Shown: positions 347 to 38,212, counted from the stretch's first letter. The stretch: 64,000 bases of DNA from a virus (IMGVR_UViG_3300021387_000334:9028-73027); one strand, 5' to 3'. The notes: generated by a model from the letters alone, not told the origin. Numbers and translations: made by a program.

Positions 347-389
347 CAAATATCTGAATTATTCGTCCCGCCTCTTCCGTGTTTTCACA
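347..389 (-). promoter_or_regulatory. Late promoter copy 1
   Basis: TGTGAAAACACGG-N22-GATATTTG-CGCC upstream of ATG 328. Confidence 0.7.
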
Positions 390-434
390 ATACCCCAATT
401 TTCGAATGTTAATAAATACTAAATGGCACCTGCA

Positions 435-477
435 TGTGAAAACACGGAAGATAAAGCACTCGCTTTATTTACTTTTG
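435..477 (+). promoter_or_regulatory. Late promoter copy 2 (portal operon)
   Basis: TGTGAAAACACGG-N22-TACTTTTG-CGCC. Confidence 0.8.
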
Positions 478-499
478 CGCCCATAAAGTAAGAGTGAAT

Positions 500-2470
500 A
501 TGGCAAAGATACGAACCCTATCACAGGCTACAGGCCGCATCCACGATTCCGTCAAGAGCCGGCATCGCCGCATGTCTGTGGATATTCCCGTCCGCAGGCG
601 CAGGAGGGTTGACTACGACCTCGTGCTGCGCTGTCAGCAGGCTTGGAACAACCTAGACGATGCCAGAAGAACTCGCGAACGGGTGAAGGAATATGTCTAT
701 GGCGACCAGTGGGGAGATATTATCCACTACCGTCACGGACAAATCACGGAGCGAGAGTATATCCAGCGCAAGGGTAATGTACCATTACAGAACAATATCA
801 TGATCTCCATCCTTGGCTCTGTCACAGGTCTCTACACCAAACAGGCTGGAGAGCCAAACTGCTTTGCCATGCGCAAGGATTCCCAGTGGCTCTCGGATAT
901 GATGTCGGCCACCATTCAGCAGAACTGGCAAAAGACAAAGCAGATGGATGCCCTGAAAGCAGCAATGGAGGACTTCTGTATTGGCGGCATGGCTATTGCC
1001 CGTGAGACCTATGAGGAAAAGATGGGTCGCCGTGTGGCTTGGACGGACTTCCCGAATGTGAATCATGCTTTTTGGGAGGCTGGCACAGACCCGCGCATGT
1101 CAGACCTACGAATGGTTGGTCTGCTACACGATGCCACCAGAGGCGAACTTTACTCCAAGTTCTGCAACGAGAAATACGGCTGGACGGTCGCTGAGATCAA
1201 TGAGGTCTTCAATATCCCGGACCCTCAGGATTATCCGGGCTATCCATCCAGCTCCGGTTATCAGCAGAACGAGCGCGAAAGTCTCTCCGCACTCTCTTTC
1301 GACAAGGCATCAGACAACGGCCTCTACCGTCTGATTGAGGTGTGGACGCAGGAGACCAAGACACGGTATCAATGCTATGACCCATTGGCCACCAAGGCCG
1401 ACGATATAGAATTTCGCGTCGAGGTGAAGGACATATGGCGAATCCAGCAGAAGAACCAAGAGCGCATCCGTCAGTATCAGGAGATGGGAATCCCCGAAGA
1501 GGAATGGGCTCTGATAGAATACGAACTGATTGAGGATTTGTATTGGTACTTCACTTATCTGACTCCCGATGGCACTGTGCTTGCCGAAGGTGAGACTCCA
1601 TACGAATCGAAGACTCACCCCTTCTCCATCAAACTCTATCCTTACGTCAACTCGGAGATACACCCCTTCATGGGTAATATCATCGACCAGCAGCGCTACA
1701 TCAACCGCCTGATTATCATGCACGACATGGCAGCACGCTCGGCTGCAAAGGGTATCATGATTTTCCCAATAGGCAATATCCCCGATGGAATGTCAAAGGA
1801 GGATATAGCCGAAGAGATTACCGAATACGACGGACTTCTATTCTTCGAGACGGATAAGATAAATCCTGCTCTCCGTCCAGAAATCATCACATCGGGAGCC
1901 GTGCAAATCGGTACGCAGGAACTCCTGCAGATGGAGCTTAACCTTGCACGCGACATCACCAACGTCAGCGGGGCACTCCAGGGCAAGACTCCCTCTGCCG
2001 GAACTTCTGCTGCCCGCTACGCACAAGAGACGCAGAACGCTACCACTTCTCTCGCATCCATCCTCCATGACTTCACTTCGTTCATGGAGTCGATTGCACA
2101 GAAGAAGTGCATGATGATCAAGCAGTACTACCGTCACTCAGACCTTGTAGTATCGCGCGACCATACTATCTTCTACGAGTACGACAATCTCTCTGCCCGT
2201 GACGTGGACTTTGAGGTGACTATCAAGGAGTCTGCCGCTACCGCTGCCTACCGTACCTACATCAACGACACCGCTCTCCAGCTCCTACAGATGCAGGCCA
2301 TCAACGTCAAGCAATACCTGGAGGTGGTCAACCTCCCCTATGCCGACGAACTCCTGCAAATCATCCAGCGTGACGAGGCACAGCAAATGGCCATGCAGCA
2401 GGAACTCATGGCGCAGGGGGTCAATCAGCAACAGGTTAATAACGCACAACAAATGTTACAGGCCGCATGA
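500..2470 (+). CDS. Portal protein (P22-like/podovirus type)
   Basis: ~656 aa; YVYGDQW, NIMISILGSVTG, IIDQQRYINRL, TNVSGALQGK, Q-rich C-terminal barrel; ATG 500 preferred over GTG 494. Confidence 0.85.
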   Translation: MAKIRTLSQATGRIHDSVKSRHRRMSVDIPVRRRRRVDYDLVLRCQQAWNNLDDARRTRERVKEYVYGDQWGDIIHYRHGQITEREYIQRKGNVPLQNNIMISILGSVTGLYTKQAGEPNCFAMRKDSQWLSDMMSATIQQNWQKTKQMDALKAAMEDFCIGGMAIARETYEEKMGRRVAWTDFPNVNHAFWEAGTDPRMSDLRMVGLLHDATRGELYSKFCNEKYGWTVAEINEVFNIPDPQDYPGYPSSSGYQQNERESLSALSFDKASDNGLYRLIEVWTQETKTRYQCYDPLATKADDIEFRVEVKDIWRIQQKNQERIRQYQEMGIPEEEWALIEYELIEDLYWYFTYLTPDGTVLAEGETPYESKTHPFSIKLYPYVNSEIHPFMGNIIDQQRYINRLIIMHDMAARSAAKGIMIFPIGNIPDGMSKEDIAEEITEYDGLLFFETDKINPALRPEIITSGAVQIGTQELLQMELNLARDITNVSGALQGKTPSAGTSAARYAQETQNATTSLASILHDFTSFMESIAQKKCMMIKQYYRHSDLVVSRDHTIFYEYDNLSARDVDFEVTIKESAATAAYRTYINDTALQLLQMQAINVKQYLEVVNLPYADELLQIIQRDEAQQMAMQQELMAQGVNQQQVNNAQQMLQAA

Positions 2471-2931
2471 CACTATCATTCTCTACTCTCAAACTGGCGG
2501 TAAAGCGTCACTTGTCAGTCATCGGCAAGCGAACCTATTCGAAGGACGGACAGAATCAGTTCTCGCAGATAACCGTGTCTACCGCCGAAGACCCTATCTT
2601 CGAGCAGTACCTTGCCGCAGCTGCCCAGCAGGTAGAAGCATTGCTGAGACAGTTGGTTAGCACCTTCTCACTGACAAGCACGGGTTTTACCCTGACTCTT
2701 CATAACACCAGAGGTGCAGCTGATTTCGAAGCCCGCTCAGAGGAATTGGTTACTACTTTCTGTGTTCTATACACGGTTGGCGAATACCTGGCCATGACCC
2801 GTCCAGATATGGCACAGAAATATCAGTCGGATGCCACGGGAGCCATGCAGTCGCTTCTCAGCTATGCCTTCTATAAGGAACCGCCAACATCGGTTGCCGA
2901 TCCGTTTGCGGCCAGTACATCAGTATCTTAA
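2467..2931 (+). CDS. Putative head-tail adaptor/ring protein
   Basis: ATGA-coupled to portal; helical; distant similarity to the next three ORFs. Confidence 0.55.
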   Translation: MTLSFSTLKLAVKRHLSVIGKRTYSKDGQNQFSQITVSTAEDPIFEQYLAAAAQQVEALLRQLVSTFSLTSTGFTLTLHNTRGAADFEARSEELVTTFCVLYTVGEYLAMTRPDMAQKYQSDATGAMQSLLSYAFYKEPPTSVADPFAASTSVS

Positions 2932-2943
2932 AATATCGAATAT

Positions 2944-3465: not shown

Positions 3466-3466
3466 T

Positions 3467-4231: not shown

Positions 4232-4255
4232 GTATACTGCGGTATCTCCGCAGTC
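4231..4255. promoter_or_regulatory. Palindrome/hairpin copy A
   Basis: AGTAT-ACTGCGG-TATCT-CCGCAGT-C. Confidence 0.5.
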
Positions 4256-4276
4256 CTTTAATATATAATAAGGTAT

Positions 4277-4906: not shown

Positions 4907-4910
4907 AATC

Positions 4911-5405: not shown

Positions 5406-5410
5406 AGTCC

Positions 5411-5435
5411 AGTACACTGCGATATTATCGCAGTC
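5411..5435. promoter_or_regulatory. Palindrome/hairpin copy B
   Basis: AGTAC-ACTGCGA-TATTA-TCGCAGT-C. Confidence 0.5.
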
Positions 5436-5449
5436 AAATTCCCAGAAGC

Positions 5450-6279: not shown

Positions 6280-6411
6280 AAAAATCCCCCGACTTTCATT
6301 TATTAAGCAGTACCACCCACTTATATAAACGATACCCTACACAGGTGCGTCGGGGGAGTTATGTCCCGGACACTTGTGTAGGGCTTAGTGCGTCTATGTG
6401 GGGTGGTACGG
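6278..6411 (-). ncRNA. Candidate structured small RNA
   Basis: Minus-strand TAACTTTG at 6415-6422; nested stems 6310-6320/6398-6409 and 6335-6347/6371-6383; ends in a U-run. Confidence 0.45.
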
Positions 6412-6455
6412 GTGCAAAGTTACAAACAAAACTCGAAACAACAAAATTTTGCATC

Positions 6456-6683
6456 ATGAAAGTGGTTGAATTGTTGAAAATCGGTGCCGAAATGTTAAAG
6501 TTGATGTCAAAGAATGACGTCTTGCGGGATGATTGGCGTTTTGTCCCAATGTATGAATCTTATAAGGAGATGCGCTCAAACGGGATCAAATATCGTGAGT
6601 GCATCCGCATGCTATCAGAAGAATATAACGTCAGCCGCGCCACCATCGAACGAGCCATAAGGAGGTTGGAAGGAGAGTGTTAA
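6456..6683 (+). CDS. Small HTH DNA-binding protein
   Basis: C-terminal LSEEYNVSRATIERAIRRL HTH; start ATG 6456. Confidence 0.7.
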   Translation: MKVVELLKIGAEMLKLMSKNDVLRDDWRFVPMYESYKEMRSNGIKYRECIRMLSEEYNVSRATIERAIRRLEGEC

Positions 6684-9510: not shown

Positions 9511-9899
9511 GGACGGAGTATTTCAACATCGGTGATGATGATTGGGGTATCGTACTCTGCTACGACTACGACCTCTTGGACTATGACCGTATATGGTCTA
9601 TCATCCGTGCCACGGGAGTATCTGACGAAAAGGCGCAGTATGCCATGAGTGTACTGAGTCTGCCAGATACGGGCATGACGTTGACAAGCTTCTCGGATAT
9701 GATGTCGTTCCTGTTCGTGAGTCGTTCAAGTTCCGATGAGCAATGGTTTGACACGCTGATCCACGAGCTGAAGCATGTGGTGGAGCATATCAGCGAATTC
9801 TATCGCGTAGACCCCAAAAGCGAACCAGCTGCATACCTTCAAGGAGAAATAGGCAGGCAACTGTTCCCACTGATAATGCAGAAGATGTGCGATTGTTAA
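9507..9899 (+). CDS. Zincin-like metallopeptidase-motif protein (cassette)
   Basis: LIHELKHVVEHI...SEPAAYLQG (HExxH plus downstream Glu); ATGA coupling. Confidence 0.65.
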   Translation: MRTEYFNIGDDDWGIVLCYDYDLLDYDRIWSIIRATGVSDEKAQYAMSVLSLPDTGMTLTSFSDMMSFLFVSRSSSDEQWFDTLIHELKHVVEHISEFYRVDPKSEPAAYLQGEIGRQLFPLIMQKMCDC

Positions 9900-9900
9900 G

Positions 9901-9929
9901 AAGGAGGCGAGCGGCCTCCTTTTTATTTT
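9901..9929 (+). terminator. Intrinsic terminator closing the cassette
   Basis: AAGGAGGC-GAGCG-GCCTCCTT then T-run. Confidence 0.75.
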
Positions 9930-9953: not shown

Positions 9954-9996
9954 TGTAAAAACACGGCGAACACAAGCCTGATATACATTAGCTTTG
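9954..9996 (+). promoter_or_regulatory. Late promoter copy 3 (tail spike)
   Basis: TGTAAAAACACGG-N22-TAGCTTTG-CGCC. Confidence 0.8.
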
Positions 9997-13461: not shown

Positions 13462-13488
13462 TAATTAATAATATAAAATAATAAAAAT

Positions 13489-26600: not shown

Positions 26601-29600
26601 CATAGTCCACAACATCACTCTTGCTCTGTGCCGACTTCAACAGGTCAAGCAATGCCTCCTTGATTTCCTCGGTAGTCCACCGCTTTTCCTCTCCGACGCT
26701 GTTCTCAGGACTCTCCCATACCATGTGAACAAACTCGTCAACTCCAATACCTTCGCCTTTCTTGGCCAGCAGGGTCTCGATATACTTGGTGTCGCCACCA
26801 ATCATGCGGGTCCATCCCAATTCCTTCTGGAGTCCACGTTTGCCATTCACATCATCCCATGCAAGGTTACGCTTACGCCCTATCCACATCGAAACGAGTT
26901 CATAGACATCGTTGGCCTTGGTAAAGTCATCATCAAACAACTCGCCCAACTCCGCTTTCAGAGCCTTAATGCGCTCCTGCTTCTGCTCTTCAACGGTCTG
27001 TCCCGGTTGCGAAGGTACAACATTTTTTCCACTTTCATGCTGTCCGGTCTGATTATTTACGTTTTCTTCACCATTGGCAGGTGCTTCTTCCGTTCCCTGC
27101 GATAGCATCGCAGCCCTTTCCTTCAAAGCCTGATAGTAGTCAATAACACCTTGTGCCTTCTTTCTATCTATCAAGTCCTTGCGGGTCTTGGTAGCTTTGC
27201 CGTTAATCTTGTCGATAGTCTGCTGTGCTTCTGCAATAGAGGCATCAGCCACCTCACCGACATCAAAACCGTCGTTCTGAATATCCGCAATGGCATCGTC
27301 TACACTTACACCATTCTCATACCGCTTGATACCGTCCTTATCTATCACGCTTTCAATGCTGACAGCAGGTGTGCCTGCGGTATTTCCTGATGTGTCCGCC
27401 ACTGTTCCCGTTGCGTTAGCTGCAGGTGGGGTAGGAGTGGCAGGAGCGGTCGCCGACGGGGCGTTTCCTCCGGGCAAAGTCCCACTTTCCTCCGGGGAAA
27501 GTCCAGGTTTGCCCGGAGCAGACTGCGGCTGACTCAACGTCCCGTTGGGGTCGGACACCATTGTAACGCCCTGCCCCAGCCTTTCTACCTCCTGTGCTTC
27601 CCAGGCATCAAGTGTTACCCCGGAGGGGATGACACTATATCCCGACGCATCACTCAGCTGCACCATTTCGCCCGCTGCCTCATCAAAAGCAATGATAAGA
27701 CCCGAATCTGAGCCTGTGATACGTCCGTCGTTGGAGGTCTGTACGTTTCCGCTGACAAGGACATAGGTATTCGTGCCGTCCGTGATATTGACAATATTGG
27801 AAGTGTCGGGGTTGCCGTTGATGGTTCCCTTGAACGTTCTGCGCTGCCTGCCCATATTGGCAGCTTCCGCTATCTTTCTCTGAGCCTCAGCCATGTAGGC
27901 ATTGAACTTGGCTTGCGCATTGTAGTAGTCGATGACGGTCTGGCGATCCTGCGGAGAGAAGCTATCGAGTGAAGAGACGATTTCCTGCGGGAAGAATCCC
28001 TGCTGCTCCATCCTCTCTACCTCCTGCATCAAGTCCTCGTTGCGGGAGAACAACTGCTGACGTGCGGCCTGCGCTGCTGCCCACCCTTCGGTTATCTCCT
28101 TGCCTGCATTGTTTTGTGGGTCAATGGCATCCTCAGTACTCGTCACCTGATTGACCACGCCTTCTGCTGCCTCCGCACCCTCTTGGGCTGACACCTCGGT
28201 ATGCACTTCTGTATTGGGGTATGCAAGACCCTTCAGGAACTCGCGAGCCTGGTCGGCCATCTGCAACTCTTCTTGGGAAAGCTGCATGGGGTCGGCCTCA
28301 GAAAGTTCCCTTATTGTTCCGGCTTCCCAGCCGTTCTCCTCTTCGAAGGCTGCTATGGCCTCACGGGTGGCACGCGCTTTCTCTATGACACGCTGGTTCT
28401 TGCGCTCCTGGAACTGACGGCCAATCTCCGTTTCGGGGTTCTGTATGTCGGCAAGCTGCTCCGGAGTGGGGTCTTCGCCAAGAAATTCAGCCACAAGATC
28501 GGAACTCTCCGGGTAAGACATGCCCACCGACAGTTGCAGATAGTCCTTCATGTCCTGCGACTGCTGACGCATCTTCAACTCTCCCTGATAAGCCTTGGCC
28601 TCGTCTTCCGTCTCGAACGACTGTTGCCCAATGACATTCCCGAAGGCATCAAGCGAGGCGACAGAGAAACTGCCATCATCATTCTTCTTGATTGAACTAC
28701 TGTTCATCCTTGGCTGATACTCGGCCATTACCGCACCTTTCCTCTCCAACACCTTCCCAGCATAGTCGAGGACAACCTTTCTCTCATCCTGCGACATATT
28801 GGCATTGTTGATGTAGGCTGTTATGGTGGAGTTAAGGGCAATAGGATCGTCTGCTACTGACTGAATGACGGTCTTCATATCATCCCAGTCGGCAAAGAAC
28901 TTATTCCCTTTCTCGTCAATCTTACTCATGCGGTTGTTCCACTTGTCCCAGGCGTAGGCCTTTGTGTGGAGGGCTGATATAAAACCGCCCATCAGAGCCA
29001 CGCCTGCGAAAGTGTCAATGTGCTGCTGGAGATTGAAGATACCCGTGTCCTCGGCATTATCAAAAGTCATATCGCCAACGGTAGCGGCATTGGCCAGATT
29101 TCCAAGTTCCTCTTCAATATACTCACTAAACACACCGTGCCACTGGGTCTTTTTCAGGAAGTTGTCAAGTCCCTGACTGATGGCACCAAGACCACGCTGA
29201 CTTGTCACGTCGAAGATAAAACGCTGGGCCTTGTTAAGACTTACGTCACCAAGACGGCCTGTCAGATTAAGTGCTTCACGCCCAGCCTTTCCTATTACGG
29301 CCTTGCCAATAGCATTACGGAGAATACCCGTCACGGGGGCAAGATACTCACCCCACATCTCGGAAGAGTTCCCTATGCCGTTGGCTACCCATGCCTTGGT
29401 GAAGGCTTCCATAGGGCTGATTCGTTTCTCCTTATCCTTGAAGATGATGTTACCCTGCTGGTCAACATTCTCCACCATGCCCTCGGAATATCTCTTGGCG
29501 GCATCGGCAGAGGTTCTTACCAAGCCTGTAGTCGCTGCCATTATCTGACCGCCAAGCACGTCACCCGCTACCCTTGTGGCAATCTTGCTGGCAAGCACTC

Positions 29601-30834
29601 CCTTGGCATGGTCTTTCACCCATTTCTTGCCATACTTCTGCATAGCATATTTCACCAGACCCTTCTGTGCTGACTGCCCAAGGCCTGAAGCGGGGTTGAT
29701 AGCCATTTCAAGCATGAAGGGGAGGGATTCGCCCGTCACCTGTCCTGCTTTTGCCCAACCGCTTAACTGTTTGCCATATTGTGAGGAGACGGCATTATTC
29801 AGAGCCCAGTCGCTCAGCAATTCTCTTTCATCCTCAGTAATCTGCTCGCCGTTATCCATGCGAATGATGGCCTCCATCAACTTTGTCTGCGTGTTGATGT
29901 CAGTGGCTCCGAAATCCCATGTGGACTTCTTGAAGGTAGAGTTGGCTACGTTTCTTGCTGCCTGTTTCAGACCGCCAAGGATGTCTACATCGCCCTCTCT
30001 ATTCTCAATCTTCACCTCGTCGATGATACGCTTGCCCTCAGAAAGCAGATGCTGACGGGCCTCCAGCAGTTTGCGGTTCTCTGTCTCATTGTTGGCCATC
30101 ATCATATTCACACCAGCATAAGGGCTTGCAGCCATATTGATAGCGTTGGCAAGAAAGAGCGATGGACTCTGGTCGTACATCTTGGCCAATTCTCTCAGCT
30201 CGCGCTCCTGCGACTTGGCCAGTTTCTTGTTCACCTCGTCGAGACGCTGCTGATTCTGCTGCTCCAAAGTCGGACTATTCCTCGACTCTCTCAGATAGCG
30301 GTCATAAGCCACCTCCTGCGGCTCTATGGGGGTGATGACATTCTCCTTTACCACATTCCCATTCTCGTCAACATATTGCTGAACACCGGGAGTGACCTTT
30401 GTATTATGTCGCGCCTCCTGAATATCCTCGCTAACTTTCCTGCGCTTGCCATTACCCACCTCATAAGAGGCTTCGAAGTCGGGCGTTCCGATAAATGCCT
30501 GGTGTGCGCCTTCGCCCGTCAGATAATGGGAAAGCGGCTTGCCAGTCAGCGGGTCTTTAGTAGGCTGCTTGGCGGCGGGATGTGGTGTCGGCTGTGGTAC
30601 AACCTGTGGTTGTGCCGTAGGTTGCGGCTCTGTCACAGCGGTTGGCTGTTCAGGTCTTAGCTTTCCGAAAAATTCATCCCTGCTGCCTAGCTTGTACCCG
30701 TCTGCGGTAAGGTTCTGATACAATTTGTCGGCTTTCGTACTGTCCGACATGTTCTTGGCGAACTGTTCCATCGAGCCGAGGTTATAGCCGTCGGCCTTCA
30801 AGTTCTGGTATAGTCTCTCTATGTTGTTCGGCAT
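14644..30834 (-). CDS. Giant polyvalent virion ejection protein (DarB-like: N6-MTase, Strawberry-notch SF2 helicase, ART-like, zincin-like, LPD38-like)
   Basis: LEPSAGNG and NPPF (~24150-23959); GDQTGIGKG, DESH, GISLHA, QIRGRIDRTGQ (~22880-21220); HETVAH (18403-18420); C-terminal AKEITVNFNKKG..YANLPEWTRRKN..IPIG. Confidence 0.88.
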   Translation of the reverse strand: MPNNIERLYQNLKADGYNLGSMEQFAKNMSDSTKADKLYQNLTADGYKLGSRDEFFGKLRPEQPTAVTEPQPTAQPQVVPQPTPHPAAKQPTKDPLTGKPLSHYLTGEGAHQAFIGTPDFEASYEVGNGKRRKVSEDIQEARHNTKVTPGVQQYVDENGNVVKENVITPIEPQEVAYDRYLRESRNSPTLEQQNQQRLDEVNKKLAKSQERELRELAKMYDQSPSLFLANAINMAASPYAGVNMMMANNETENRKLLEARQHLLSEGKRIIDEVKIENREGDVDILGGLKQAARNVANSTFKKSTWDFGATDINTQTKLMEAIIRMDNGEQITEDERELLSDWALNNAVSSQYGKQLSGWAKAGQVTGESLPFMLEMAINPASGLGQSAQKGLVKYAMQKYGKKWVKDHAKGVLASKIATRVAGDVLGGQIMAATTGLVRTSADAAKRYSEGMVENVDQQGNIIFKDKEKRISPMEAFTKAWVANGIGNSSEMWGEYLAPVTGILRNAIGKAVIGKAGREALNLTGRLGDVSLNKAQRFIFDVTSQRGLGAISQGLDNFLKKTQWHGVFSEYIEEELGNLANAATVGDMTFDNAEDTGIFNLQQHIDTFAGVALMGGFISALHTKAYAWDKWNNRMSKIDEKGNKFFADWDDMKTVIQSVADDPIALNSTITAYINNANMSQDERKVVLDYAGKVLERKGAVMAEYQPRMNSSSIKKNDDGSFSVASLDAFGNVIGQQSFETEDEAKAYQGELKMRQQSQDMKDYLQLSVGMSYPESSDLVAEFLGEDPTPEQLADIQNPETEIGRQFQERKNQRVIEKARATREAIAAFEEENGWEAGTIRELSEADPMQLSQEELQMADQAREFLKGLAYPNTEVHTEVSAQEGAEAAEGVVNQVTSTEDAIDPQNNAGKEITEGWAAAQAARQQLFSRNEDLMQEVERMEQQGFFPQEIVSSLDSFSPQDRQTVIDYYNAQAKFNAYMAEAQRKIAEAANMGRQRRTFKGTINGNPDTSNIVNITDGTNTYVLVSGNVQTSNDGRITGSDSGLIIAFDEAAGEMVQLSDASGYSVIPSGVTLDAWEAQEVERLGQGVTMVSDPNGTLSQPQSAPGKPGLSPEESGTLPGGNAPSATAPATPTPPAANATGTVADTSGNTAGTPAVSIESVIDKDGIKRYENGVSVDDAIADIQNDGFDVGEVADASIAEAQQTIDKINGKATKTRKDLIDRKKAQGVIDYYQALKERAAMLSQGTEEAPANGEENVNNQTGQHESGKNVVPSQPGQTVEEQKQERIKALKAELGELFDDDFTKANDVYELVSMWIGRKRNLAWDDVNGKRGLQKELGWTRMIGGDTKYIETLLAKKGEGIGVDEFVHMVWESPENSVGEEKRWTTEEIKEALLDLLKSAQSKSDVVDYAVNSREQAARVAPEAQQQMEQEAAAQQPAEVEVAPLTDEEIAQMEANLPFAAPVEGEDIPDSPITQLMKLVQELMQQEGMPQIKLVDTDRMSDDEWIDLTSQVYGGDFVDEETVNEVRDYALTTGVIRDDDGTILVFSDSQTPEDVKSKIQTILDYANTLQEEGRNDGRDTIVERTETKTPQEQKPETPAAAGAAGTESQGSTEPVVTETPAEVPQGTERDEYLQPRNEKEEQIIADVIAQLQQEIDAAIKERDKAASDLQKAQAKESDRATDMFSDDEAFQEPGQLFSFDDMGGTDRTKEGVNRRTAAERKALQDAQKKLDQLQSEAERKSRIRGALDNERRQTSFTPAADATGTVTGQPQSREEYLASHPLTEEQIMADMGALEDEKLNAIDFLRGEDDSAISRFYYDSIYERAQKTSSENRQKKEGNEPAKEKKEERDSWQSATDEEFYPVAKDWLDQQEKPYSSALQRKFKIGYHKATRIMERYMAEKGAENDPMAAIEQAAQSFREEQKSQDQKDIDDALKEFNDFLDNAKGSNVLDKFMRKGLEGNDKAQASLLDAFTLTNEAQRMFLKDLLRLASKVGYAYIKSGVHDVQTWSKKMSDSIGQKLKEVLGWEDDIIGEFVDEVWQQKYTVDGQRMRLSEHAERLKNGNSTDQTVNEHKDENNDPENVVSSQQKPASKLEGDSAEFAERQHKLTQLTKKIRAKLQGIVNWGDQPKPLSAYKQIAKELGIENLSDTDLQELIETEVVNLAREIANKEGLTDEKKFLKIVKLYEGQPSLNARDNDRINKQQYSTPAPMAFLMGKFLKEGKEVKSGLEPSAGNGMLTLNLPKEAMHVNDIDEMRLSNLAKQGFAEVTSQDGTQPFGEKKYDVVVTNPPFGNVPAKTYDGLYEISGLEHQMAINALESMKDDGRAAIIIGGNTEYNQNGSIKGKDRAFFNYLYAHYNVVDVINMDGKTLYSRQGTGFPVRMILINGRKEFNPRSFAPTIQKARAERVNSYDELYKRVNDDILSDSNKPASVHDTESGESDGKHDNGHAGNTTQTGVRNVRSEGGSKQRQLLDSGGQSVSGGVGSTSKGADTGTDTSVGERGDVVHGTGSTASQPGGSTPSSAEQGGNVPNRRNDTERPDGRVDVSVGGGSRPSVEVRRLGTEKVPYRQQSKNPYSLQSQMPAEQAEVVKKALEELGDVDEFLVKELGYSSVEDLHHGSQSPEKHGGLAAEQIDSVAMAIHQMNEGNAFIIGDQTGIGKGRQAAALIRYGVKKGGCPVFITVKKGLFSDMYRDLCDIGSPGLRPFIWSADDEEHSADVTDKNGNVVYKRPSDKEQKRVVDYINKYGKLPPEYDYIVTTYDSFKGGTMVYEEGQKKARNFGKKSPTTGAYNSQAKRDALERLAENSYVIMDESHNAGGETSAVSGYLQYITTKAKGVTFLSATFAKRPGNMPIYSLKTAIAKAGVKIGELIDAVKQGGATFQEIMSKALTEAGQMIRRERDMTGVTIDWKGIEDEAVIEKQRQQYDTIIGLFNDIIDFQRRYVDPIVNKKNDEAADEQGEVDHTPGTRDMGINNTPFASRTYNMVQQVLLSLKAEETAKRAIEHLKQGHKPVIALANTNEGAADEVSTGEDMEMPDLSVNLKKGLQGTLRITKKDAFGNSTNEMIPFDELSEAGQARYREIMDAIENASSGLSLSPIDVIKNELKKAGYKVGELTGRKQEFVYNEDGTVKRVKRQDSDKKRTAADFNNGKLDVLILNKSAGTGISLHASSKFDDQRQRVMIVAQAQGDVNDEVQIRGRIDRTGQVLRGMYEYVVSQIPSEQRLLMMLKAKLRSLDANTTSSQKSKFNEMQVQDIINKYGDDIVIQYLAEHTDLAAKMVDPLKWGEGFETMPAETLIANATKDGEAGKTASKVLGRMALLKVAEQEKMLAEIGDLYQAEIDRLNEMGENDLEITEMPLRAKTLGKKVWEEGVEPGGKNPFADNSYVEEVEMDILKKPMKAEELKKSQSRLLGGKTWDEYKQGVLERLDKWEAEKKKDATDTITARAEKKAQAEKEKYIKGAKKAQEKNGMTDAEIEKNGQYQYDHFYKEEMEKLQAALDAVDKQKQAFVDALETFTTDGVYALPTDIYDLGELSFEPSFGKVIDIKISDNFSTAASTISFATLDGRRKITIPISGMVKQSNGEKRDIKPIIVQQSAQSRSGFFGSNIANMMKVLEQNVDNWDKLTSTATRKKGYIITGNLLKALTSLQKQRQGGKLISYTTDTGEIRQGVLMGERFDPGALTSQNPISSAKADLDDWGKDRKITSADGDVTIKADGYGSWMSYTLKVPKSKKKGEKYFNDKVLLSLMDGQFEGSSALKADFKEENLDKVLKRLDELGVTVQSKKEDTNNDIDSGYSEDIEEDELNTLEGGYSEETDEEVIERLEREPKIKVYRAMSLIDGKLYPPMATKQDGQLREPIELGKWEKSDEHPEKAVKRNGKWVFKLTKDNGKSLFAAYNPYIHTSTTMLNDQFSEAQNRPNLVVVEVEVPESELTSGYKAEKAKDAVGRLEWKAGIIQGQLTGTREVILSRWDKPVRIVPTEEVAKSIAKQINCKVEVMPTNVVTPAQREALEKEGVKFVETDNRGKIVDGPNKGKTYSSVYGKKAKNSGYSEGEAKAKPQSTRHKENIRKHVENLLNKLGTRNRTTVITSINGVRNKARREHIENMHKQGKKVYGWFENGRIYLYLPDIDSIYKAEQTIWHETVAHVGLRELLGADNYGKLLNRLWMQHKDGEMGDWVTRRMQVNGWSLHKAIDEWLAREAEKVVAERQERRTLWQKLAGWVGDILREIGYRTNPTITDVRYLFWLSENQLREGEPMSAIKRAAFLHRLERENRTAVLQRSTKRGSDMDAGYSEDIDDPMEYSEKAVYDERLNRVETVFTEAYQDSMIALKTAQNAIAHDKAIPDSQNAYMAENLMHGKNKNEQDLFNSMLRDPLIDTINKIMNRTGMNWGDVDRYVYTKSGLERNREFFVRDWLERERNKNIRKYEDLNPEEQDIFDHKAEVIETLFEDGDIETEEQKEKELAKALQEAHKEYIDSIEERLVALKQKNYLDLQTGDINFADYLAGLTNFILDNIDGAYNPSENDYSGFRAMYGDEDGKYDEDEIIAELMDTEDAIEAENVDTLWEQIQNCTRYGLERYRESGMRSDEQIDKIEQMFHWYVPMRGFKNDTGEDMYQYFTAKGKEKSYIGGLLKHAKGRGSEANYPISTIFAMTYKAISDCNQNLVNQKLYRLCQTNPNDLVVLSDTWAKLNEATGEFEEAYPDINDDMDEEEIRQAVVAFEEEMKELAKENKAIKIRGKEKFDYVPMDKKKKSEHVIEVRINGQQKRMIVVGNPRMAQALNGQLRFERGKNVFSKWNNAVKNFMASVFTSYSPTFALRNMFRDWTHFRTMLGVREGRGYAKRANKYYRQSLFKMVGLFRKYREGTLNMDNEMERDFKDFMDNGGITGFVQMQKIDDIQKQMEKLYKQQKDGKPVRLNNKVWEYTLGAIEALNEGIENNARFATFRASRHYAGRTKARAAYDAKEITVNFNKKGAGSKTAGFKSQNKVVEDAAKAFGVTSQILGEGRIFFNATVQAIATTFKNFQKADGSLNKGYIAKWAARYALPPFAFGLALPMINQALAAAFGGDDDDPYANLPEWTRRKNICIYIGNNNFITIPIGQELAAFLALGDMFAGLTYAPNLKPVDRSIDEEMVGIMNTFSPVDIDTKITKGGLMEDPVDELVGRTFSVLAPLVAVGQNLGWTGRPIYREDKFQNDQFTPEYQMVYSGTNPALVNASKLLHELGGGDDIVRGKLEVNPAIVQYLWEQYSGGPGKFLGNTLVGAGKDLKDLLVEGEAPDFNIRKIEGVKAFVQQGDDRTQYYRTQAKYRKYKADAEKLHDAVKGYEGAAAEDPMALMKLENIVTGEDYVRMEIVREADKQLSKINKAANKAEGRERKELRRLYNEQVKAVVDLLDGVGKD

Positions 30835-30840: not shown

Positions 30841-32091
30841 TTAGCTAAATGGATCGTCTTTGTGATTCGTCTTTGTCTGTGCGGGCTTATTTCGGTCGGC
30901 GAACGGATCGCCCTTTGTCTTGTCGTTAGGTATCTGTTCGTTCCATTGCCACCCATATTTTGAGTGCATACGGACGGCTGCATCATCATGCTCCATTAGC
31001 ATCTTGTCAACGGCTCTCTCTTTGATGTTCTGCGAGATTGCAGCTGAGCCTCCGATGCTATATCCTCCGTAGTTCATCTGTCCTTTGAGTTCGGCTTCGT
31101 CAATATAAGGTCGCCCTGTACGCGGGTCTTTCATTTTCTTGCCCCACTCATACATCTGGTGATAAGTGTTCTTTATCTCGCCTGCGGTTGCTCCTTTTTT
31201 CGTCAGATAGCCTCGGCGGGTGTCTCTCCGTTCCACCTTGCCGCTACCACCACCGCCACCATTCAGGCGATTGATATAGGCTGCGGCCCTGCGTTCGTTG
31301 GTGCGGGCATTCCTGTCAGCGATACCAGCCATCGTGTTCTGATAACTCGTCTGTTGTTTCAGCCTGGCTTCCCCAAGGGCTTTTGCATCATCGGCTCTGC
31401 GATTACCGAGGTCAAGCTGGCCTTGCTGATAAGCTTTCTGCTGCGCCAGCCTGTCCTGCATATTCTTGATCTGCGCCTCTGTATAGCCAGCCTTCCTTGC
31501 AGCGTCGGCCACCTTCAATCCATAGTCTGCCTCCCACTGCCTCTGCTTGGCATCCTGCGCGGCCTTGGCCTGCTGGTAGGCACTATATTTCAGATTGGCG
31601 GCATCACGGAGAGCCTTGCCCCTCTCGTATCGCTGTTCCTCTTCCAGGACGGGAGAGTTGAACTGCTGAGGCGGGGCATAGTTCACGGTGTGGATAATGT
31701 TGCCGATATGTCTGGCGGCATCGGCAAATGCCAGGATGCGACGGTTGGCCATGCTTGCCCTCCTCATACGCTCCTCATCCTCGGGACTGGTGTACATCTG
31801 TGCCAGTGCGTTCATGCCCGAAGCGGGATTGCTCGGGTCGATGGGAGGCTGATAGGTGACGGGGGGCTGAACGGGGTTGTTCGTGTTCCTTGGCGGGACG
31901 GCCTGCGCCGTACTCTGTGGCGCTGGCTTCGGAGTTTGATAATTGCGGAACATGTTGGGGTTCTGCTTGCCTGCTGCGAACTGCTCCGGCGTCTCGCCCG
32001 CCACCTGTCCGGGCGTTCTCTGCTGCGCCATCTGCTGCCCTTGGGCTATCCCCGCAAGCTTCTGTTGCTGCAATAATAGATTATCTGCCAT
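30841..32091 (-). CDS. Q/A-rich internal virion (ejection) protein
   Basis: 416 aa, low-complexity helical, upstream of the giant protein under a late promoter. Confidence 0.65.
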   Translation of the reverse strand: MADNLLLQQQKLAGIAQGQQMAQQRTPGQVAGETPEQFAAGKQNPNMFRNYQTPKPAPQSTAQAVPPRNTNNPVQPPVTYQPPIDPSNPASGMNALAQMYTSPEDEERMRRASMANRRILAFADAARHIGNIIHTVNYAPPQQFNSPVLEEEQRYERGKALRDAANLKYSAYQQAKAAQDAKQRQWEADYGLKVADAARKAGYTEAQIKNMQDRLAQQKAYQQGQLDLGNRRADDAKALGEARLKQQTSYQNTMAGIADRNARTNERRAAAYINRLNGGGGGSGKVERRDTRRGYLTKKGATAGEIKNTYHQMYEWGKKMKDPRTGRPYIDEAELKGQMNYGGYSIGGSAAISQNIKERAVDKMLMEHDDAAVRMHSKYGWQWNEQIPNDKTKGDPFADRNKPAQTKTNHKDDPFS

Positions 32092-32114
32092 AAAAATAAC
32101 GTTATTTCTGCGGG

Positions 32115-32157
32115 CAAAAATAGCGTGAATGCCGTTTCTGTCTCCCGTGTTTTTACA
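32115..32157 (-). promoter_or_regulatory. Late promoter copy 4 (ejection proteins)
   Basis: TGTAAAAACACGG-N22-TATTTTTG-CCCG. Confidence 0.8.
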
Positions 32158-32266
32158 TGTGGAATTGTTAGAATTCCTTAATTTGATTTGCTATCATTTG
32201 CTATCATTTGTCGCCGATTCCATGAAATTTGCAAAACACGGAAAGATTCTCTATATTTGCAGCATT

Positions 32267-32770
32267 ATGAAGAATGACTACGACATAGAAAAACAGAAGC
32301 AGGACGATCTGATAAATGCGTACAATCAGGTTGCTCCCCACTGCCTGATGCAGGATGATGCCTACAGGAAGGCGGTAAAACAGCCCGCACCAAGATATTA
32401 CATATCGGCAAAGCAGGCTGCACAGGTTCTCTCCCCGATGGTCAGAGGCGACTTCACGAGGGTAGACATGATGATACCCAACAGGAGGCGCATGTACTAC
32501 TCTCTCTTCGAGAAGGTGCTGGAACTGTCAGAGAAGCGGGCGTTCGTAGGGAAGTCGCTCCTTTACATCACTCGGTTTGCGGTATTATCCCCTGCGCCGG
32601 AGTTCTTTATCGGTGGCGACTCTTTCAGAGTGCTACGCTCGTATCTGAAGAACGGGCACTATGACGATGACGGAAGGACGTGCGGACTCCCTGGCAGACA
32701 GAGGGCCTACGAGAAACTGAAGAGGAAACGGGAGAGAATCAAGGCGCTCAAATCCTCGCTTCGGTCATAG
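32267..32770 (+). CDS. Basic putative DNA-binding regulator (candidate late activator)
   Basis: Start ATG 32267 after TATATTTG (32252-32259); K/R-rich; lone plus-strand gene divergent from late promoter 4. Confidence 0.6.
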   Translation: MKNDYDIEKQKQDDLINAYNQVAPHCLMQDDAYRKAVKQPAPRYYISAKQAAQVLSPMVRGDFTRVDMMIPNRRRMYYSLFEKVLELSEKRAFVGKSLLYITRFAVLSPAPEFFIGGDSFRVLRSYLKNGHYDDDGRTCGLPGRQRAYEKLKRKRERIKALKSSLRS

Positions 32771-34907
32771 GCTCAAAGGTCTTCTCCTTCTTTTCCTCAC
32801 GTCTCCATGAGGGCTTGTAGATGGATTCATGGAAGGCGATCCACAGTCCGATGGCCGTAGACATGAGTACGTCGTCATGCTTTCCGGATCCCGGCTCGTT
32901 ACCCATCCTGTTCGTCTCAGGGTCGCGCTGATACCAGCCTAATTCCTGGTACATGTTCTCGTCGGGCTCTTCCCAGAGCTTGTCATCCACACACGCAATC
33001 AGATTATCAATGAGCCATATCTTCGTCTGCACATTGGTATGAAAACCATATATCGGCTTGATTCCCTCGGTAGTGCTCTCCGGCTCCTTCACTCTCTGAT
33101 AGAGATTAGGATAATACCCCGCAATCTCGGTGATGATAGTACCGAAGTGGTCGCCCTCGGTATTGTTGTCCTTCTCGCGGTCTGCCGTGTTTTTCTCAAT
33201 GACCAATAAAGCATCGTCATAGAAATGTGCCAAGGCCGCTGCCGTCCAAGCGAGTATATCATGTCTGATATGCCCCCTCCATCGGGCTACTACTCTCGGC
33301 CTGCCCTTCACCTCGGGAACCATACCCATCAAATCAAAGACTGTCATCACGGTATAGTCACTCGTCTGGCTCTTTCCTCCAATATCCACAGATACCAGAT
33401 ACCGATTCCTGACTTTCAGTATCTGATTATTGGGCATCGACCATATCTTCAGCTCTCCCGCCTTGTCATTCCGGATTTTTATATCCGCATTGAGGAACAC
33501 CTTGCGGCTCTTCTGCTCGAACGGGGGAAGGTTGATGTTGGCATAGTAGAGTGGAGACTTTGGGGCCTGACAGTCCTCCTTCAGATCATCAATGGCATAC
33601 GGGTCGAAGACTGCATTACCCGCATTACGGAATGCCTCAACGGGGTCGATAGGAGCCTCGGAGGCCATGTAGCCGTGCGCCTTGTGCTCATTACGTCTGT
33701 ATCTGTACCAGTTGATAGCCTCAAAGCATGCACCCATCTTCCATAGCCTCCAGAAGAACTTACCGCTCTCACGGAATCCCGCAGGGCACTGCTCGTAGTC
33801 TTTATTCTCCCATAGCCAAGTGGCAAATTCCTCCTCTTCCTTCTCAGAAAAACCTTCCTTTCCCATCGGCTTCATGTCATTCTCAATCAGGAAGAAGGCG
33901 ATAAACAGGAAATGGTAGGCCGAAGTGGAATCTTCCTTCATGGCATCCTGACAGAGGTCATAGAAGAATCCGCTGTTCTTCTTACCCGTACTCTCAAAGA
34001 CGGCCAGCTCGTCGGGCAGTCCAAGGAATCCACCCTGCAGGTTGGAGATAACCTCGTCGGGGTCGTGTTCGGGGGTCTTCTTCCACGATGCCACCTCGGA
34101 GTAGTGTACCATCTTGTAGTTGTCGCCACGGCACTTCTCAAATGAGTTGAAAGAGGCGATACTCAAAAGCGAGGTACGCGCCAAGAATTTACCGTCGGTA
34201 ATCTGAAAGTCGGAGTCTGAACGCTCGTATGGGGTCATCTGCAGCTTACTGCCTGGCATCCCTATCGTCCATCCCGGCTGCTTCTCCACGGCCTTTCTGT
34301 ACATGGCCTTGATCTTCTTGGAGGTAGAGTCTGCCTGAGTGATTACCGCTGCATTCCATCCGTGGGGGTGACGGAACTCCTGCATCCACTTGATGTACAT
34401 CTGTGTCAATGTTGAACCTCCCCACTGGCGGGCTTTCAGCAAGACCACAAGGATAGGCTTGTTCGCCCTTCGCAGGTCTTCGAAGAGTCCAAGCAGCTTT
34501 CTCTGTGCATATCTCAGACGGAAGGGTATCATGCCGCCCGTCACCTTATCCACAATCTGGTCTACCAACACAAATGCAAACTCGGGATCGTCATAGCACC
34601 TCGCCTGGAAAAGGGCTTCCTCCACGTCCTGATGATACCATTCATCATAAGTCCCGTTGACCTGCCCGCTCTCTTCTATAAACCTACGGATAGTGCCGTA
34701 TTTCAAGACCTCATGCCATATCGTACTCTCCATGGTCTCTCTCGGAATCCACATTTCGGGGATGATGCAGTCGGGAATGACCACATGAACCCTCATTCCC
34801 TCCTTGAAACCATAGCACCCCAGCCCCGTCAGCTGGTCGTAAGGCCCGAATATCTCCTGCCTTCTGCTATGATTCTCCGCTATCAGCTCCCTTATCTCTT
34901 CCTTCAT
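32748..34907 (-). CDS. terL: Terminase large subunit
   Basis: LKARQWGGST (Walker A), VHYSEVASW (Walker B), VSVDIGG and HDDVLMS nuclease motifs; start ATG 34907. Confidence 0.92.
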   Translation of the reverse strand: MKEEIRELIAENHSRRQEIFGPYDQLTGLGCYGFKEGMRVHVVIPDCIIPEMWIPRETMESTIWHEVLKYGTIRRFIEESGQVNGTYDEWYHQDVEEALFQARCYDDPEFAFVLVDQIVDKVTGGMIPFRLRYAQRKLLGLFEDLRRANKPILVVLLKARQWGGSTLTQMYIKWMQEFRHPHGWNAAVITQADSTSKKIKAMYRKAVEKQPGWTIGMPGSKLQMTPYERSDSDFQITDGKFLARTSLLSIASFNSFEKCRGDNYKMVHYSEVASWKKTPEHDPDEVISNLQGGFLGLPDELAVFESTGKKNSGFFYDLCQDAMKEDSTSAYHFLFIAFFLIENDMKPMGKEGFSEKEEEEFATWLWENKDYEQCPAGFRESGKFFWRLWKMGACFEAINWYRYRRNEHKAHGYMASEAPIDPVEAFRNAGNAVFDPYAIDDLKEDCQAPKSPLYYANINLPPFEQKSRKVFLNADIKIRNDKAGELKIWSMPNNQILKVRNRYLVSVDIGGKSQTSDYTVMTVFDLMGMVPEVKGRPRVVARWRGHIRHDILAWTAAALAHFYDDALLVIEKNTADREKDNNTEGDHFGTIITEIAGYYPNLYQRVKEPESTTEGIKPIYGFHTNVQTKIWLIDNLIACVDDKLWEEPDENMYQELGWYQRDPETNRMGNEPGSGKHDDVLMSTAIGLWIAFHESIYKPSWRREEKKEKTFEPMTEARI

Positions 34908-36440: not shown

Positions 36441-36450
36441 ATAACTATAA

Positions 36451-36810
36451 CTAAAACTTCTTAACGTACCCAATAACAAAGTCTATCGACTTCAAAATCT
36501 CTTCAACGTCCATATCACGATTATCCAGATTACGCAGACACCTCTGACACTTGCGCAACATCGCCAGATGGTGACGATTCTCCTGCACTGACACAAACTT
36601 ATCCGTTGTACACAAGTCCGAACAGTGCATTACACCGCTGGAATCACCTACGGCAGCACAAGAGCAATAACCCCAACCGTCAGTATCTTCAAACTTGAAC
36701 CAGCAACAGGCACCACAGACCTTCTCTATGCTATCTCCTTGTTCCATCTGCCACTCTCGTTGTTCTTGTAATTCCTCACATACCTCCCAGTGTAACTTCT
36801 CTGACACCAA
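36451..36810 (-). CDS. Cys-rich hypothetical protein
   Basis: CGACCW...YC...CSDLC; start uncertain. Confidence 0.6.
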   Translation of the reverse strand: MVSEKLHWEVCEELQEQREWQMEQGDSIEKVCGACCWFKFEDTDGWGYCSCAAVGDSSGVMHCSDLCTTDKFVSVQENRHHLAMLRKCQRCLRNLDNRDMDVEEILKSIDFVIGYVKKF

Positions 36811-37145
36811 GACTTTGACTTCTTCAATCCCAAAGACCTCGCCTTGTTGTGAACCAATGTATTGCTCACGCCAAGATGATCGGCAATGTCACAACCTGCC
36901 ATCGTACCATAATTATCCATCAGGTACTTCAACTCAGCATCAGTCCACATATGACCGGAACGACGAGGAGTCTTTGACAAGCCCAAAGACCGTGCCTTGG
37001 CACTCACCGCTGGAGCGGAAATGCCAAAATGTCTCGCTATGTCATCATTCGAATCGGTACAGAAATGCTCACACAAGTAACGAATGTCATCGTCACTCCA
37101 AACTAACTTACTATTCATGCCCTTACGGCGCGTATCTCTTGTCAT
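36726..37145 (-). CDS. Tandem HTH (Myb/GcrA-like) repeat protein
   Basis: Two W(S/T)DxxxxYL...DIAxHxGxS...KARSLGLxK repeats. Confidence 0.7.
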   Translation of the reverse strand: MTRDTRRKGMNSKLVWSDDDIRYLCEHFCTDSNDDIARHFGISAPAVSAKARSLGLSKTPRRSGHMWTDAELKYLMDNYGTMAGCDIADHLGVSNTLVHNKARSLGLKKSKSWCQRSYTGRYVRNYKNNESGRWNKEIA

Positions 37146-37287
37146 TTTCTAAATTTTATGGTGGTCAATGTTACTGAAAAGGGTGGTCAGTACCCCGGGG
37201 GTCGGGAAAAATCGTCGATGTGTCTGTACCTTTCTCTGCTGTACCTTGCGCGGGTGGTCGAGGCCCCGCCCCCCTTGGGGTCGCACC

Positions 37288-38040
37288 TCACCCCCCAATC
37301 ACACCCCTTGCACGCCTGCGTTCCTCTGCGGTAGCGGCTTCCGAAATCTTCCCCAATACACCATCACCGCCAAATACATCGCTCGAAATGTTAGGCTTCA
37401 CGCCCATGTCGGTGTCTATCTGCTCGGTTGTCTTCGGTATCTCCGTACCTTTATTATCTCCACCCGTGAGGGAGGTTGCTCCGTCAAGTGCGCTTCCTGC
37501 CTGCATGATGGCGTTAGATGCGTTCTGCGCTGCGGTTGTGATGTTCTGTGCCCTTTGCATCTCCCTATTCATATCCATCTGTGCATATTGCTGCTGCGCC
37601 CTTTGGTGCATTATGTCGGCATTACTTTTCCGTGCTTGGTCTGTGGCGGCTATATTGGCTATGGTGTCACCGACCATCTTATTTCCCGCATCCTTGGCCA
37701 TCTGTGCGGCTGATGCAGTGCCACCGCTGACCGCCTGCGCACCAGCAGCCTTGCGCCATTGCTCCTTCGCATAGTCCTTGGCACGTCTGACAAGGTTCTG
37801 CCCTGCTGCGGTATCAACATAGTCTTCATTATACCTCTTATTATACCATGCATCGTCCCTCGCTTCCTGCTTCCTCTGTCTTCTCTCTGCTGCGTTCGCT
37901 GCGGCAGAAGCCTTTGCACCGCCAAAGAGAGACGAGGCAAGTGCGCCTGCCGCACTGATGGCAGAGATAATCCATTGTTTGTGTGAAGGAGCAAAACTGA
38001 TGCCCATTCCTAACGGCTGATTTAATGCTTTTATGTTCAT
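37288..38040 (-). CDS. DNA pilot/ejection-type internal virion protein
   Basis: Hydrophobic Ala/Gly-rich N-terminus (ISAISAAGALASSLFGG) then A/Q helical region. Confidence 0.65.
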   Translation of the reverse strand: MNIKALNQPLGMGISFAPSHKQWIISAISAAGALASSLFGGAKASAAANAAERRQRKQEARDDAWYNKRYNEDYVDTAAGQNLVRRAKDYAKEQWRKAAGAQAVSGGTASAAQMAKDAGNKMVGDTIANIAATDQARKSNADIMHQRAQQQYAQMDMNREMQRAQNITTAAQNASNAIMQAGSALDGATSLTGGDNKGTEIPKTTEQIDTDMGVKPNISSDVFGGDGVLGKISEAATAEERRRARGVIGG

Positions 38041-38169
38041 AATGTTACCTATTTGTTACTTTTTCTGTTAGTAAATGACCGAAAACCCTTTGTGACAGGG
38101 CGTTTCAGCGCATTTTGACTAATCCCACAAGGATTCGAACCCATGACGCTGACGGCCTTTTCATGCGGG

Positions 38170-38212
38170 CAAAGATAGATGGTTTTTGAAAATGTTGCTC
38201 CGTGTCGTTACA
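38170..38212 (-). promoter_or_regulatory. Late promoter copy 5
   Basis: TGTAACGACACGG-N22-TATCTTTG-CCCG. Confidence 0.75.

Follow-up and report, generated by a model that had tools for sequence, protein, structure and literature searches.

Predicted fixed-spacing box promoters before the late genes of a Prevotellaceae phage and a candidate activator that may read them

At phage T4 middle promoters, a MotA box takes the place of the -35 element next to a retained host -10-type element, and AsiA appropriates the host sigma factor. RinA, ArpU and LtrC of Gram-positive phages, coliphage 186 B and P2 Ogr are small phage proteins that turn on late operons and are each encoded by a separately promoted gene. 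MarA, SoxS and Rob are monomeric activators that bind an asymmetric, oriented site overlapping the -35 element, at class II promoters. In phage Mu, Mor acts from a site centred at -43.5 where the promoter has no -35 element (PMC4390567), and C activates several late promoters, lys, I, P and mom (PMC4461284). The Bacteroidota promoter consists of a -33 TTTG and a -7 TAnnTTTG, the -7 element spanning T-12 to G-5 (PMC6847099). For Bacteroidales phages, whose host promoter type (-33/-7, sigma ABfr) is unlike the E. coli model, our literature searches found no activator-dependent promoter described. Here we report a computational analysis of a 64,000-nucleotide (nt) stretch of viral DNA (IMGVR_UViG_3300021387_000334:9028-73027; hereafter the window), taken from a 73,027-nt IMG/VR virus record rated 100% complete. 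Genes for virion proteins in this genome are preceded by a 13-mer box held at a fixed distance from a Bacteroidota -7 element. We propose, with a probability of about 0.6, that these sites are activator-dependent late promoters read by a phage protein, most likely the product of the open reading frame (ORF) at 32267-32770, referred to as ORF 32267.

Predicted composite promoter sites in the phage and its relatives

The initial annotation of the window reported five copies of a 13-mer, TGTRAMRACACGG, each followed at an invariant 22 nt (N22) by a -7 box and then by CGCC or CCCG. A pattern search recovered all five at exactly the coordinates given, and the trailing CGCC/CCCG was present as claimed. 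Both the 13-mer alone and the composite TGTRAMRACACGG-N22-KANNTTTG occur five times in the window, and neither appeared in 100 dinucleotide-preserving shuffles. Copy 1 (347-389, minus strand) consists of box TGTGAAAACACGG at 377-389, the 22-nt spacer and -7 box GATATTTG at 347-354, and is divergent from copy 2 (435-477, plus strand), which has its box at 435-447 and -7 box TACTTTTG at 470-477. Copy 3 (9954-9996, plus strand) has its box at 9954-9966 and -7 box TAGCTTTG at 9989-9996, and copy 4 (32115-32157, minus strand) its box at 32145-32157 and -7 box TATTTTTG at 32115-32122. In copy 5 (38170-38212, minus strand), box TGTAACGACACGG lies at 38200-38212 and -7 box TATCTTTG at 38170-38177. A sixth copy, CGTGAAAACACGG-N22-TAATTTTG, sits on the plus strand in the 9 kb of the record that precede the window (record positions 685-727), so that the annotated number holds for the window and rises to six for the genome.

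The ACACGG hexamer at the core of the box is not enriched in itself, occurring 35 times in the genome against about 36 expected. A -7 box lies within 40 nt of seven of the 35 hexamers, at exactly 22 nt in six cases and at 10 nt in one, the latter being inside the promoter of ORF 32267. As the hexamer count is near expectation, only the linkage to the -7 box is unusual. An assumption-free scan, in which every [TG]ANNTTTG box was taken and 7-mers were tabulated by offset, returned AACACGG at offset 22 as the top word of this genome, with five exact copies. In the same scan, the maximum was two copies in 29 of 30 runs on shuffled genomes.

KANNTTTG is found at -7 in all copies, starting with TA in four of the five window copies and in copy 6, and with GA in copy 1. 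Since the -7 element occupies -12 to -5, the spacer extends from -34 to -13 and the 13-mer from -47 to -35, with its centre at about -41. In the late copies, the interval 19-21 nt ahead of the -7 box holds no TTTG; CGG followed by purine-rich sequence is present there. The box is asymmetric and always oriented towards the gene, and a CATAAA-like initiator is conserved at the sites. A TGT-N4-ACA dyad is seen only in genomes like that of this phage (designated G000), the boxes of relatives being without it. The predicted geometry is that of an activator site overlapping the -35 region (class II). In the window an ATG lies 18-25 nt downstream, the exception being copy 5, and over all sites the distance is usually 18-30 nt.

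Each site in the window heads a unit of virion genes, as had been annotated. Copy 1 is followed on the minus strand by a 263-amino-acid (aa) scaffold-like gene (phrog_22323) and a capsid gene running off the start of the window. The plus-strand unit of copy 2 extends to 6279, with the P22-like portal gene at 500-2470 and then same-strand genes that include those for the holin-like protein and lysozyme. Copy 3 precedes the gene for a 1148-aa tail fibre/BNR protein (10015-13461, plus strand) and a 284-aa gene, and 29 nt before it a terminator-like hairpin with 12 pairs and a T run (9897-9925, plus strand) closes the preceding cassette unit. Copy 4 heads a 416-aa gene (30841-32091) and then the gene for a 5396-aa polyvalent protein (14644-30834), both on the minus strand. 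The minus-strand unit of copy 5 runs from a 250-aa T7-gp14-like gene (37288-38040) down to a rhomboid gene and the gene for a 719-aa putative large terminase (TerL; 32748-34907). Copy 6 is followed on the plus strand, outside the window, by a 901-aa and a 258-aa gene. Homologues of the 250-aa conserved protein carry the Pfam domain T7_gp14, which identifies it by homology as a probable ejection protein under a predicted late promoter. The copy 5 leader (38041-38169, minus strand) is 129 nt long and holds a T-loop-like GGTTCGAATCC; no significant fold (z = -1.7) and no tRNA were detected in it, and long leaders are also found at the orthologous gp14-like promoters of two relatives (G001 and G002).

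The 13-mer was not found at the promoters of the CI-like repressor, the 6757 cassette, the lipocalin-like gene or the early operon, though -7 boxes are present at these. The annotated absence of the motif from the CI, early and cassette promoters was thus borne out, while the box core within the ORF 32267 promoter had been overlooked. On the basis of gene content, from which both their late timing and their transcription starts are deduced, the six sites would form a late promoter class.

A total of 27 portal relatives (52-91% portal identity) were retrieved, and the comparison was then extended to additional whole genomes or loci (G001-G019). In every relative examined, the divergent portal and scaffold/capsid promoters carry a box of 11-13 nt exactly 22 nt from a -7 box. 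The N22 spacing is invariant in more than 20 genomes and precedes the same late genes, namely those for the portal, scaffold/capsid, tail fibre, giant injected protein and gp14-like protein, with the same architecture throughout and despite genome rearrangements among the relatives. The box itself is uniform between the copies of one genome and different between genomes, with cores such as ACACGG, GACGAGG, ACAAGG and GATTCGG. It reads TCCGAGACGAGG in G001, CCGAAACAAGG in G002, GGACGAAACACGG in G003 and G004, GGGTCGGATTCGG in G005, TTCGGAnnCGG in G006 and G007, TTCAAATACGG in G008, CAGACACGG in G009, TTGGAATACGr in G011, TTGGAACACCG in G012, GGTGAAAkTACkA in G016, GTTAAAACACGG in G019 and TTTTCGCTrrTCrG in locus L011. 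Orthologues of the 416-aa gene, the tail fibre gene and the gp14-like gene are preceded by the box of their own genome; the orthologous tail-fibre promoter of G005, for example, carries the G005 box. When the assumption-free offset scan was applied to the relatives, the highest-ranking fixed-offset word of each genome was the box of that genome.

Uniformity within genomes, variability between genomes and exact positioning are together the hallmark of a cis element whose reader, a trans factor, co-evolves with it, and the retention of the layout while the box changes points to a phage-encoded late-gene activator. On comparative grounds, the absence of TTTG at -33 and the genome specificity of the box likewise support the annotated suggestion that the 13-mer stands in place of the -33 element and is read by a phage factor. 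A non-promoter site for recombination, packaging or replication would also be at home in intergenic DNA, where all copies lie and where many kinds of site occur, and expression from the block is a prediction. Yet every copy is oriented towards a gene and locked 22 nt from a -7 box, usually with an ATG beyond, and the block keeps its place before the same late genes in rearranged relatives, so that we consider such a site very improbable. We regard it as highly probable that the sites are a real promoter class with a dedicated trans factor.

The architecture extends to distant Bacteroides phages. Four complete genomes (G020-G023) encoding homologues 25-30% identical to ORF 32267 were retrieved. 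G022 has five copies of TGTGTTAAGAAATAAAA at N22 from the -7 box, and the other three have five to six copies of GTAAAAAGATAAA (GTAAA(A/T)AG(A/T)TAAA) at a 23-nt spacing (N23). In these genomes the box promoters head the portal gene (phrog_156), the phrog_22323 gene and others, and in all four, one box promoter stands back to back with the ORF 32267 homologue. In G020 and G021, for which the intergenic sequence was read, the one element present there also overlaps the promoter of the ORF itself, lying 9-11 nt from that promoter's -7 box. The distant phages include a near match to the cultured Bacteroides phage BKO1-TP3 (PQ571269.1). In BKO1-TP3 itself, a comparison covering the intergenic region adjoining the ORF homologue gp49 revealed an N23 element that matches the corresponding region of G021; the paper describing this phage makes no mention of promoters. 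An exact 7-mer offset scan of 20-kb loci around distant ORF homologues returned no word with at least three copies, indicating that whole genomes are needed for the distant groups.

ORF 32267 as the candidate reader of the box

ORF 32267 (32267-32770, plus strand; start codon set by homologues) encodes a 167-aa candidate late activator. The protein is basic, with 33 lysine and arginine against 19 aspartate and glutamate residues and a net charge of about +14. An AlphaFold2 model with a predicted local distance difference test score (pLDDT) of 91.8 is all-helical and consists of two tandem helical repeats (..PAPRYY-helix and ..PAPEFF-helix) followed by a basic C-terminal helix. The internal repeat alignment scores 38, compared with 21 +/- 4 in shuffles. 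Sequence searches gave no Pfam or NCBIfam match at E <= 0.01, no PHROG-function or PDB sequence match, and nothing named in a PDB profile search or the ESM Atlas; an AraC/HTH_18 signature is likewise absent from the Pfam results. A profile search placed the protein in a family of 739 cluster representatives at 50% identity, nearly all of them stand-alone proteins of 130-180 aa without a Pfam domain.

The distribution and position of the gene single it out. A homologue is present in 5/5 relatives picked via the portal, and a BLASTP comparison with G020-G023 showed that, apart from ORF 32267, only ten genes, all for morphogenetic or injected proteins, are common to three or more of these four genomes. 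Across G000-G005, all ten other shared genes lie on the same strand downstream of a late-type promoter, and the ORF 32267 homologues never do; in most cases the ORF and a late promoter point away from each other. The promoter of ORF 32267 (32228-32259, plus strand) has a -33 TTTG at 32228-32231, a 20-nt spacer and -7 box TATATTTG at 32252-32259. Within this spacer, 10 nt from the -7 box, lies the late-box core AAAACACGG (32233-32241, plus strand), a candidate operator. The genome's own box variant is found 8-12 nt from the ORF -7 box with 8-9 of 9 bases matching in G000, G002, G005, G008 and G009 and with 7/9 in G006, and foreign boxes matched ORF promoters equally well in at most 5% of comparisons.

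Between the divergent promoters of copy 4 and ORF 32267 there is a tandem direct repeat of TTGCTATCATTTG (two copies, 10-bp period; 32188-32210, plus strand), which is kept in near relatives. Three degenerate copies of TTGCTATCATTTG with a 20-bp period also adjoin the integrase gene (46487-46539, minus strand). The match count alone is not significant (6 versus 2.5 expected); the repeats may be sites of a second regulator, or arm-type sites.

Several results weigh against the assignment of the box to ORF 32267. Foldseek searches with the model gave no match in PDB or BFVD, and VIA-align gave only weak matches, with Z of 4-6.3, the background range for helical proteins. The box is clear in the ORF promoter of only about 6 of 26 genomes, unrelated palindromes being found in others, which suggests control by a different repressor there. 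Residue-to-base co-variation free of phylogeny was not demonstrated, the mutual-information signal reflecting mainly phylogeny and singletons. The second-repeat helices differ considerably among phages that share a box, and a one-base box change in G002 occurs without an obvious matching change in the first-repeat helix. Finally, the ORF is the first gene of an ORF-rhomboid-TerL operon in the distant groups, a place classically taken by a small terminase.

With respect to the palindromes, the Segatella and Leyella phages of a human-gut clade (loci L158 and L073-L137) have a perfect palindrome, for example ACGCAAACTTG..CAAGTTTGCGT, over the -7 box of the ORF-rhomboid promoter, where it replaces the late box; it is unique in the genome.

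The weak VIA-align matches are mostly to small three-helix DNA-binding domains, including those of TnpE, NtrC1, Myb/TRF, Mu transposase I-beta, ToxT (Z 4.4) and sigma region 4; no small terminase is among the matches listed. The matches are compatible with a modelled two-module monomer reading an asymmetric 13-bp site, and are not evidence alone. The sigma region 4 chains among them bear on another explanation, that box and -7 element form the promoter of an alternative sigma factor, phage-encoded or of the host extracytoplasmic function (ECF) type, with the box as its -35 element. The strictly fixed spacing, as at sigma-dependent promoters, and the abutment of the box's 3' CGG on the -33 position would fit such a factor. 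The downstream element, however, is the housekeeping TAnnTTTG consensus (PMC6847099) in all copies and all relatives, no Sigma70 region 2 or region 4 domain was found among about 75 ORFs scanned against Pfam, PHROG and NCBIfam, and the box, of at least 13 bp and varying between close relatives, is unlike a -35 element. We therefore consider an alternative sigma factor improbable.

A more serious alternative accepts the promoter class as real and takes ORF 32267 to be a small terminase or another morphogenetic protein, the reader of the box being either a phage protein that evolves too fast to be recognized as conserved or a host transcription factor differing between Prevotellaceae and Bacteroides hosts. 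In G020-G023 and BKO1-TP3 the ORF stands immediately upstream of TerL with only the rhomboid gene between, and the genes overlap. This arrangement is not found in G000-G005; the ORF lies 35 kb from TerL in G002, and in G003 and G004 it is paired only with the rhomboid gene, TerL being in the portal operon behind a 123-aa gene. A small terminase was not recognized elsewhere in Pfam, PHROG and NCBIfam scans or in PDB searches with the 250-aa and 209-aa proteins; on the other side, a 117-123-aa protein encoded 3 nt upstream of TerL in G003 and G004 offers an alternative terminase candidate. The ORF is never under an N22 or N23 late promoter in the genomes examined, unlike every other conserved morphogenetic gene, and the promoter it does have is of the canonical type or bears a palindromic operator. 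The lack of clean residue-to-base co-variation for ORF 32267 speaks for a different reader, and G000 encodes further DNA-binding proteins that might serve, namely helix-turn-helix (HTH) proteins at 36726-37145 and 6396-6683, Rha/ANT and a protein related to the C-terminal domain of the RNA polymerase alpha subunit (alpha-CTD); these are missing from relatives that keep the architecture. A host factor, for its part, would need changed specificity between phages whose portals are about 70% identical. On these grounds, a terminase or morphogenetic role combined with a different reader appears unlikely, although it deserves to be taken seriously.

The 117-aa helical protein of this phage (5926-6279, plus strand) has its 123-aa homologue upstream of TerL in G003 and G004, and in other relatives the homologue is encoded at a different place. 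The protein may be a small terminase; its model has a pLDDT of 62, a low-confidence value, and gave meaningless structural matches. PDB sequence searches for a small terminase with the 250-aa and 209-aa proteins gave no match.

Two other proteins were rejected as box readers. The HTH/HNH-like protein at 36726-37145 and the alpha-CTD protein had been put forward in the initial annotation as alternative candidates, and neither is conserved in the relatives: the former has a partial match in one of five only, and the latter was missing from G001-G005 (protein search, all five; Pfam model, G001-G004). The 146-aa conserved early protein is a NinB/Orf recombination mediator, and the 250-aa conserved protein is the T7_gp14 ejection protein under a predicted late promoter. 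The alpha-CTD protein (140 aa; 57273-57695, plus strand) matches Pfam RNA_pol_A_CTD at 5e-13 with its C-terminal half, as well as NCBIfam rpoA models, and was attractive because a proximal UP-element site likewise lies around -42; the protein could serve as a decoy or adaptor that targets host transcription.

We thus return to the reading in which the ORF 32267 product activates the late promoters. The initial annotation had already named it the best candidate, and it keeps that place with its constant exemption from late promoters in the relatives examined and, in several lineages, the genome's own box inside its promoter, with a small terminase as the rival identity. In the proposed mechanism, each promoter would consist of a housekeeping-sigma -7 element without a -33 TTTG and an asymmetric 13-bp box 22 nt upstream. 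A phage-encoded, sequence-specific protein would bind the box and replace the missing -33 contact by recruiting or stabilizing host RNA polymerase in class II geometry, so that six virion and lysis operons would be switched on together. ORF 32267 would be made from its own canonical -33/-7 promoter, where the box copy in the spacer would give negative feedback. What was observed directly is the motif with its spacing, position ahead of late genes, conservation and co-variation between genomes; from these we infer the transcription starts, late timing, activation, identity of the binder and autoregulation. That the ORF 32267 product is the factor reading the box is, on balance, the assignment we favour. 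A broader generalization is tentative: the ORF 32267 family might represent a new class of activators, monomeric DNA-binding proteins with tandem repeats, which would reprogram the Bacteroidota housekeeping-sigma holoenzyme at -33-less promoters and whose specificity would have diversified along with the box among Bacteroidales phages of gut and rumen.

The source phage and other features of its genome

The window encodes a P22-like portal, a BNR tail fibre, a lysozyme and a holin-like protein, and also an integrase, an S24 CI-like repressor, Rha/ANT, RecT, NinB and NinG. Homologues of one phage gene were found in assemblies of Prevotella sp., Segatella copri and Leyella stercorea, one of which is a 254-kb Prevotella contig. 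These relatives in Prevotellaceae assemblies point to a temperate phage of this family, and judged by its sequence the element is a temperate, podovirus-like phage of gut and rumen Prevotellaceae.

The 5396-aa polyvalent protein behind copy 4 is encoded by a single ORF (14644-30834, minus strand) and has LPD14, LPD38, Strawberry-notch (Sno)-type helicase, methyltransferase and FtsK-gamma domains. Its counterpart in Bacteroides phage BKO1-TP3 is annotated as a DarB-like antirestriction protein. A c4-2 RNA, a c4-type antisense regulatory RNA, was detected at 44674-44748 on the plus strand (Rfam score 53.2 bits versus a gathering score of 41), between a PcfJ-like region and the integrase gene. 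The Rfam tRNA model matches 51582-51686 (plus strand) with 42.5 bits over 105 nt, and ARAGORN makes no call; this segment may be an interrupted or degenerate tRNA-like element. The G+C fraction is 0.33 in 12001-14000, which holds the tail-fibre C-terminus and the 284-aa gene, and in 62001-64000, which holds a 406-aa gene at the record end, versus about 0.50 in the remaining genome. The two segments look like modules exchanged recently.

Comparison with known systems

Full-text literature searches turned up no account of the motif, nor of late regulation in phages of Bacteroides or Prevotella, in agreement with the initial annotation, which knew of no earlier description. Phage activators that stand in for the -35 contact at late promoters are a classical kind of mechanism. 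The novelty lies in the Bacteroidota setting of the promoters, their strict N22/N23 grammar, the diversification of the box throughout the family and an unrelated candidate protein family. The analysis provides a promoter grammar of box, 22 nt and -7 element across abundant temperate phages of Prevotella, Segatella and Bacteroides, together with one strong candidate protein and, in Bacteroides koreensis HM3 with phage BKO1-TP3 and its gp49, a cultured system. If the proposal is true, late regulons could be annotated in many uncultured gut phage genomes, and orthogonal inducible promoter/activator pairs would become available for Bacteroidales engineering, where such parts are scarce. If the ORF family does supply the activators, it would amount to dozens of naturally occurring, mutually orthogonal activator/promoter pairs that come with an autoregulatory operator.

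The closest parallel is with Mor and C of phage Mu. Both systems would use the primary-sigma holoenzyme at promoters without a usable -35 element, with a phage site abutting or overlapping the -35 position, here centred at about -41 and at six promoters. Mor and C bind dyad-symmetric sites as dimers, whereas the box described here is asymmetric and strictly oriented. In addition, ORF 32267 has no Pfam match, including to Mor, domain scans of about 75 ORFs detected no Mor-like ORF, and the core promoter is of the Bacteroidota -7 type.

The asymmetric, oriented box is shared with MarA, SoxS and Rob, and a polypeptide with two tandem helical modules, as in the ORF 32267 model, would fit a 13-bp site. 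ORF 32267 differs from these activators in that it carries no AraC/HTH_18 signature; its PAPRYY/PAPEFF repeats are a private duplication, and the ToxT match is weak.

With T4 MotA, the likeness lies in a phage box standing where the upstream host element would be, beside a host core element that is retained, and in the ORF's own promoter, where the box copy 8-12 nt from the -7 box is at about the MotA-box distance. The late boxes, in contrast, are centred at about -41 and not at -30, and no MotA or AsiA homologue was found in the domain scans.

As with RinA, ArpU, LtrC, 186 B and Ogr, the candidate gene is located near packaging and morphogenesis genes and has its own separate promoter. It differs from them in showing no NCBIfam or Pfam similarity and in being associated with several dispersed fixed-spacing promoters in a Bacteroidota context.

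Compared with the canonical Bacteroidota promoter (PMC6847099), the late class has the same -7 element and swaps the -33 TTTG for the 13-mer at N22, and the promoter of ORF 32267 is itself fully canonical, reading TTTG-N20-TATATTTG.

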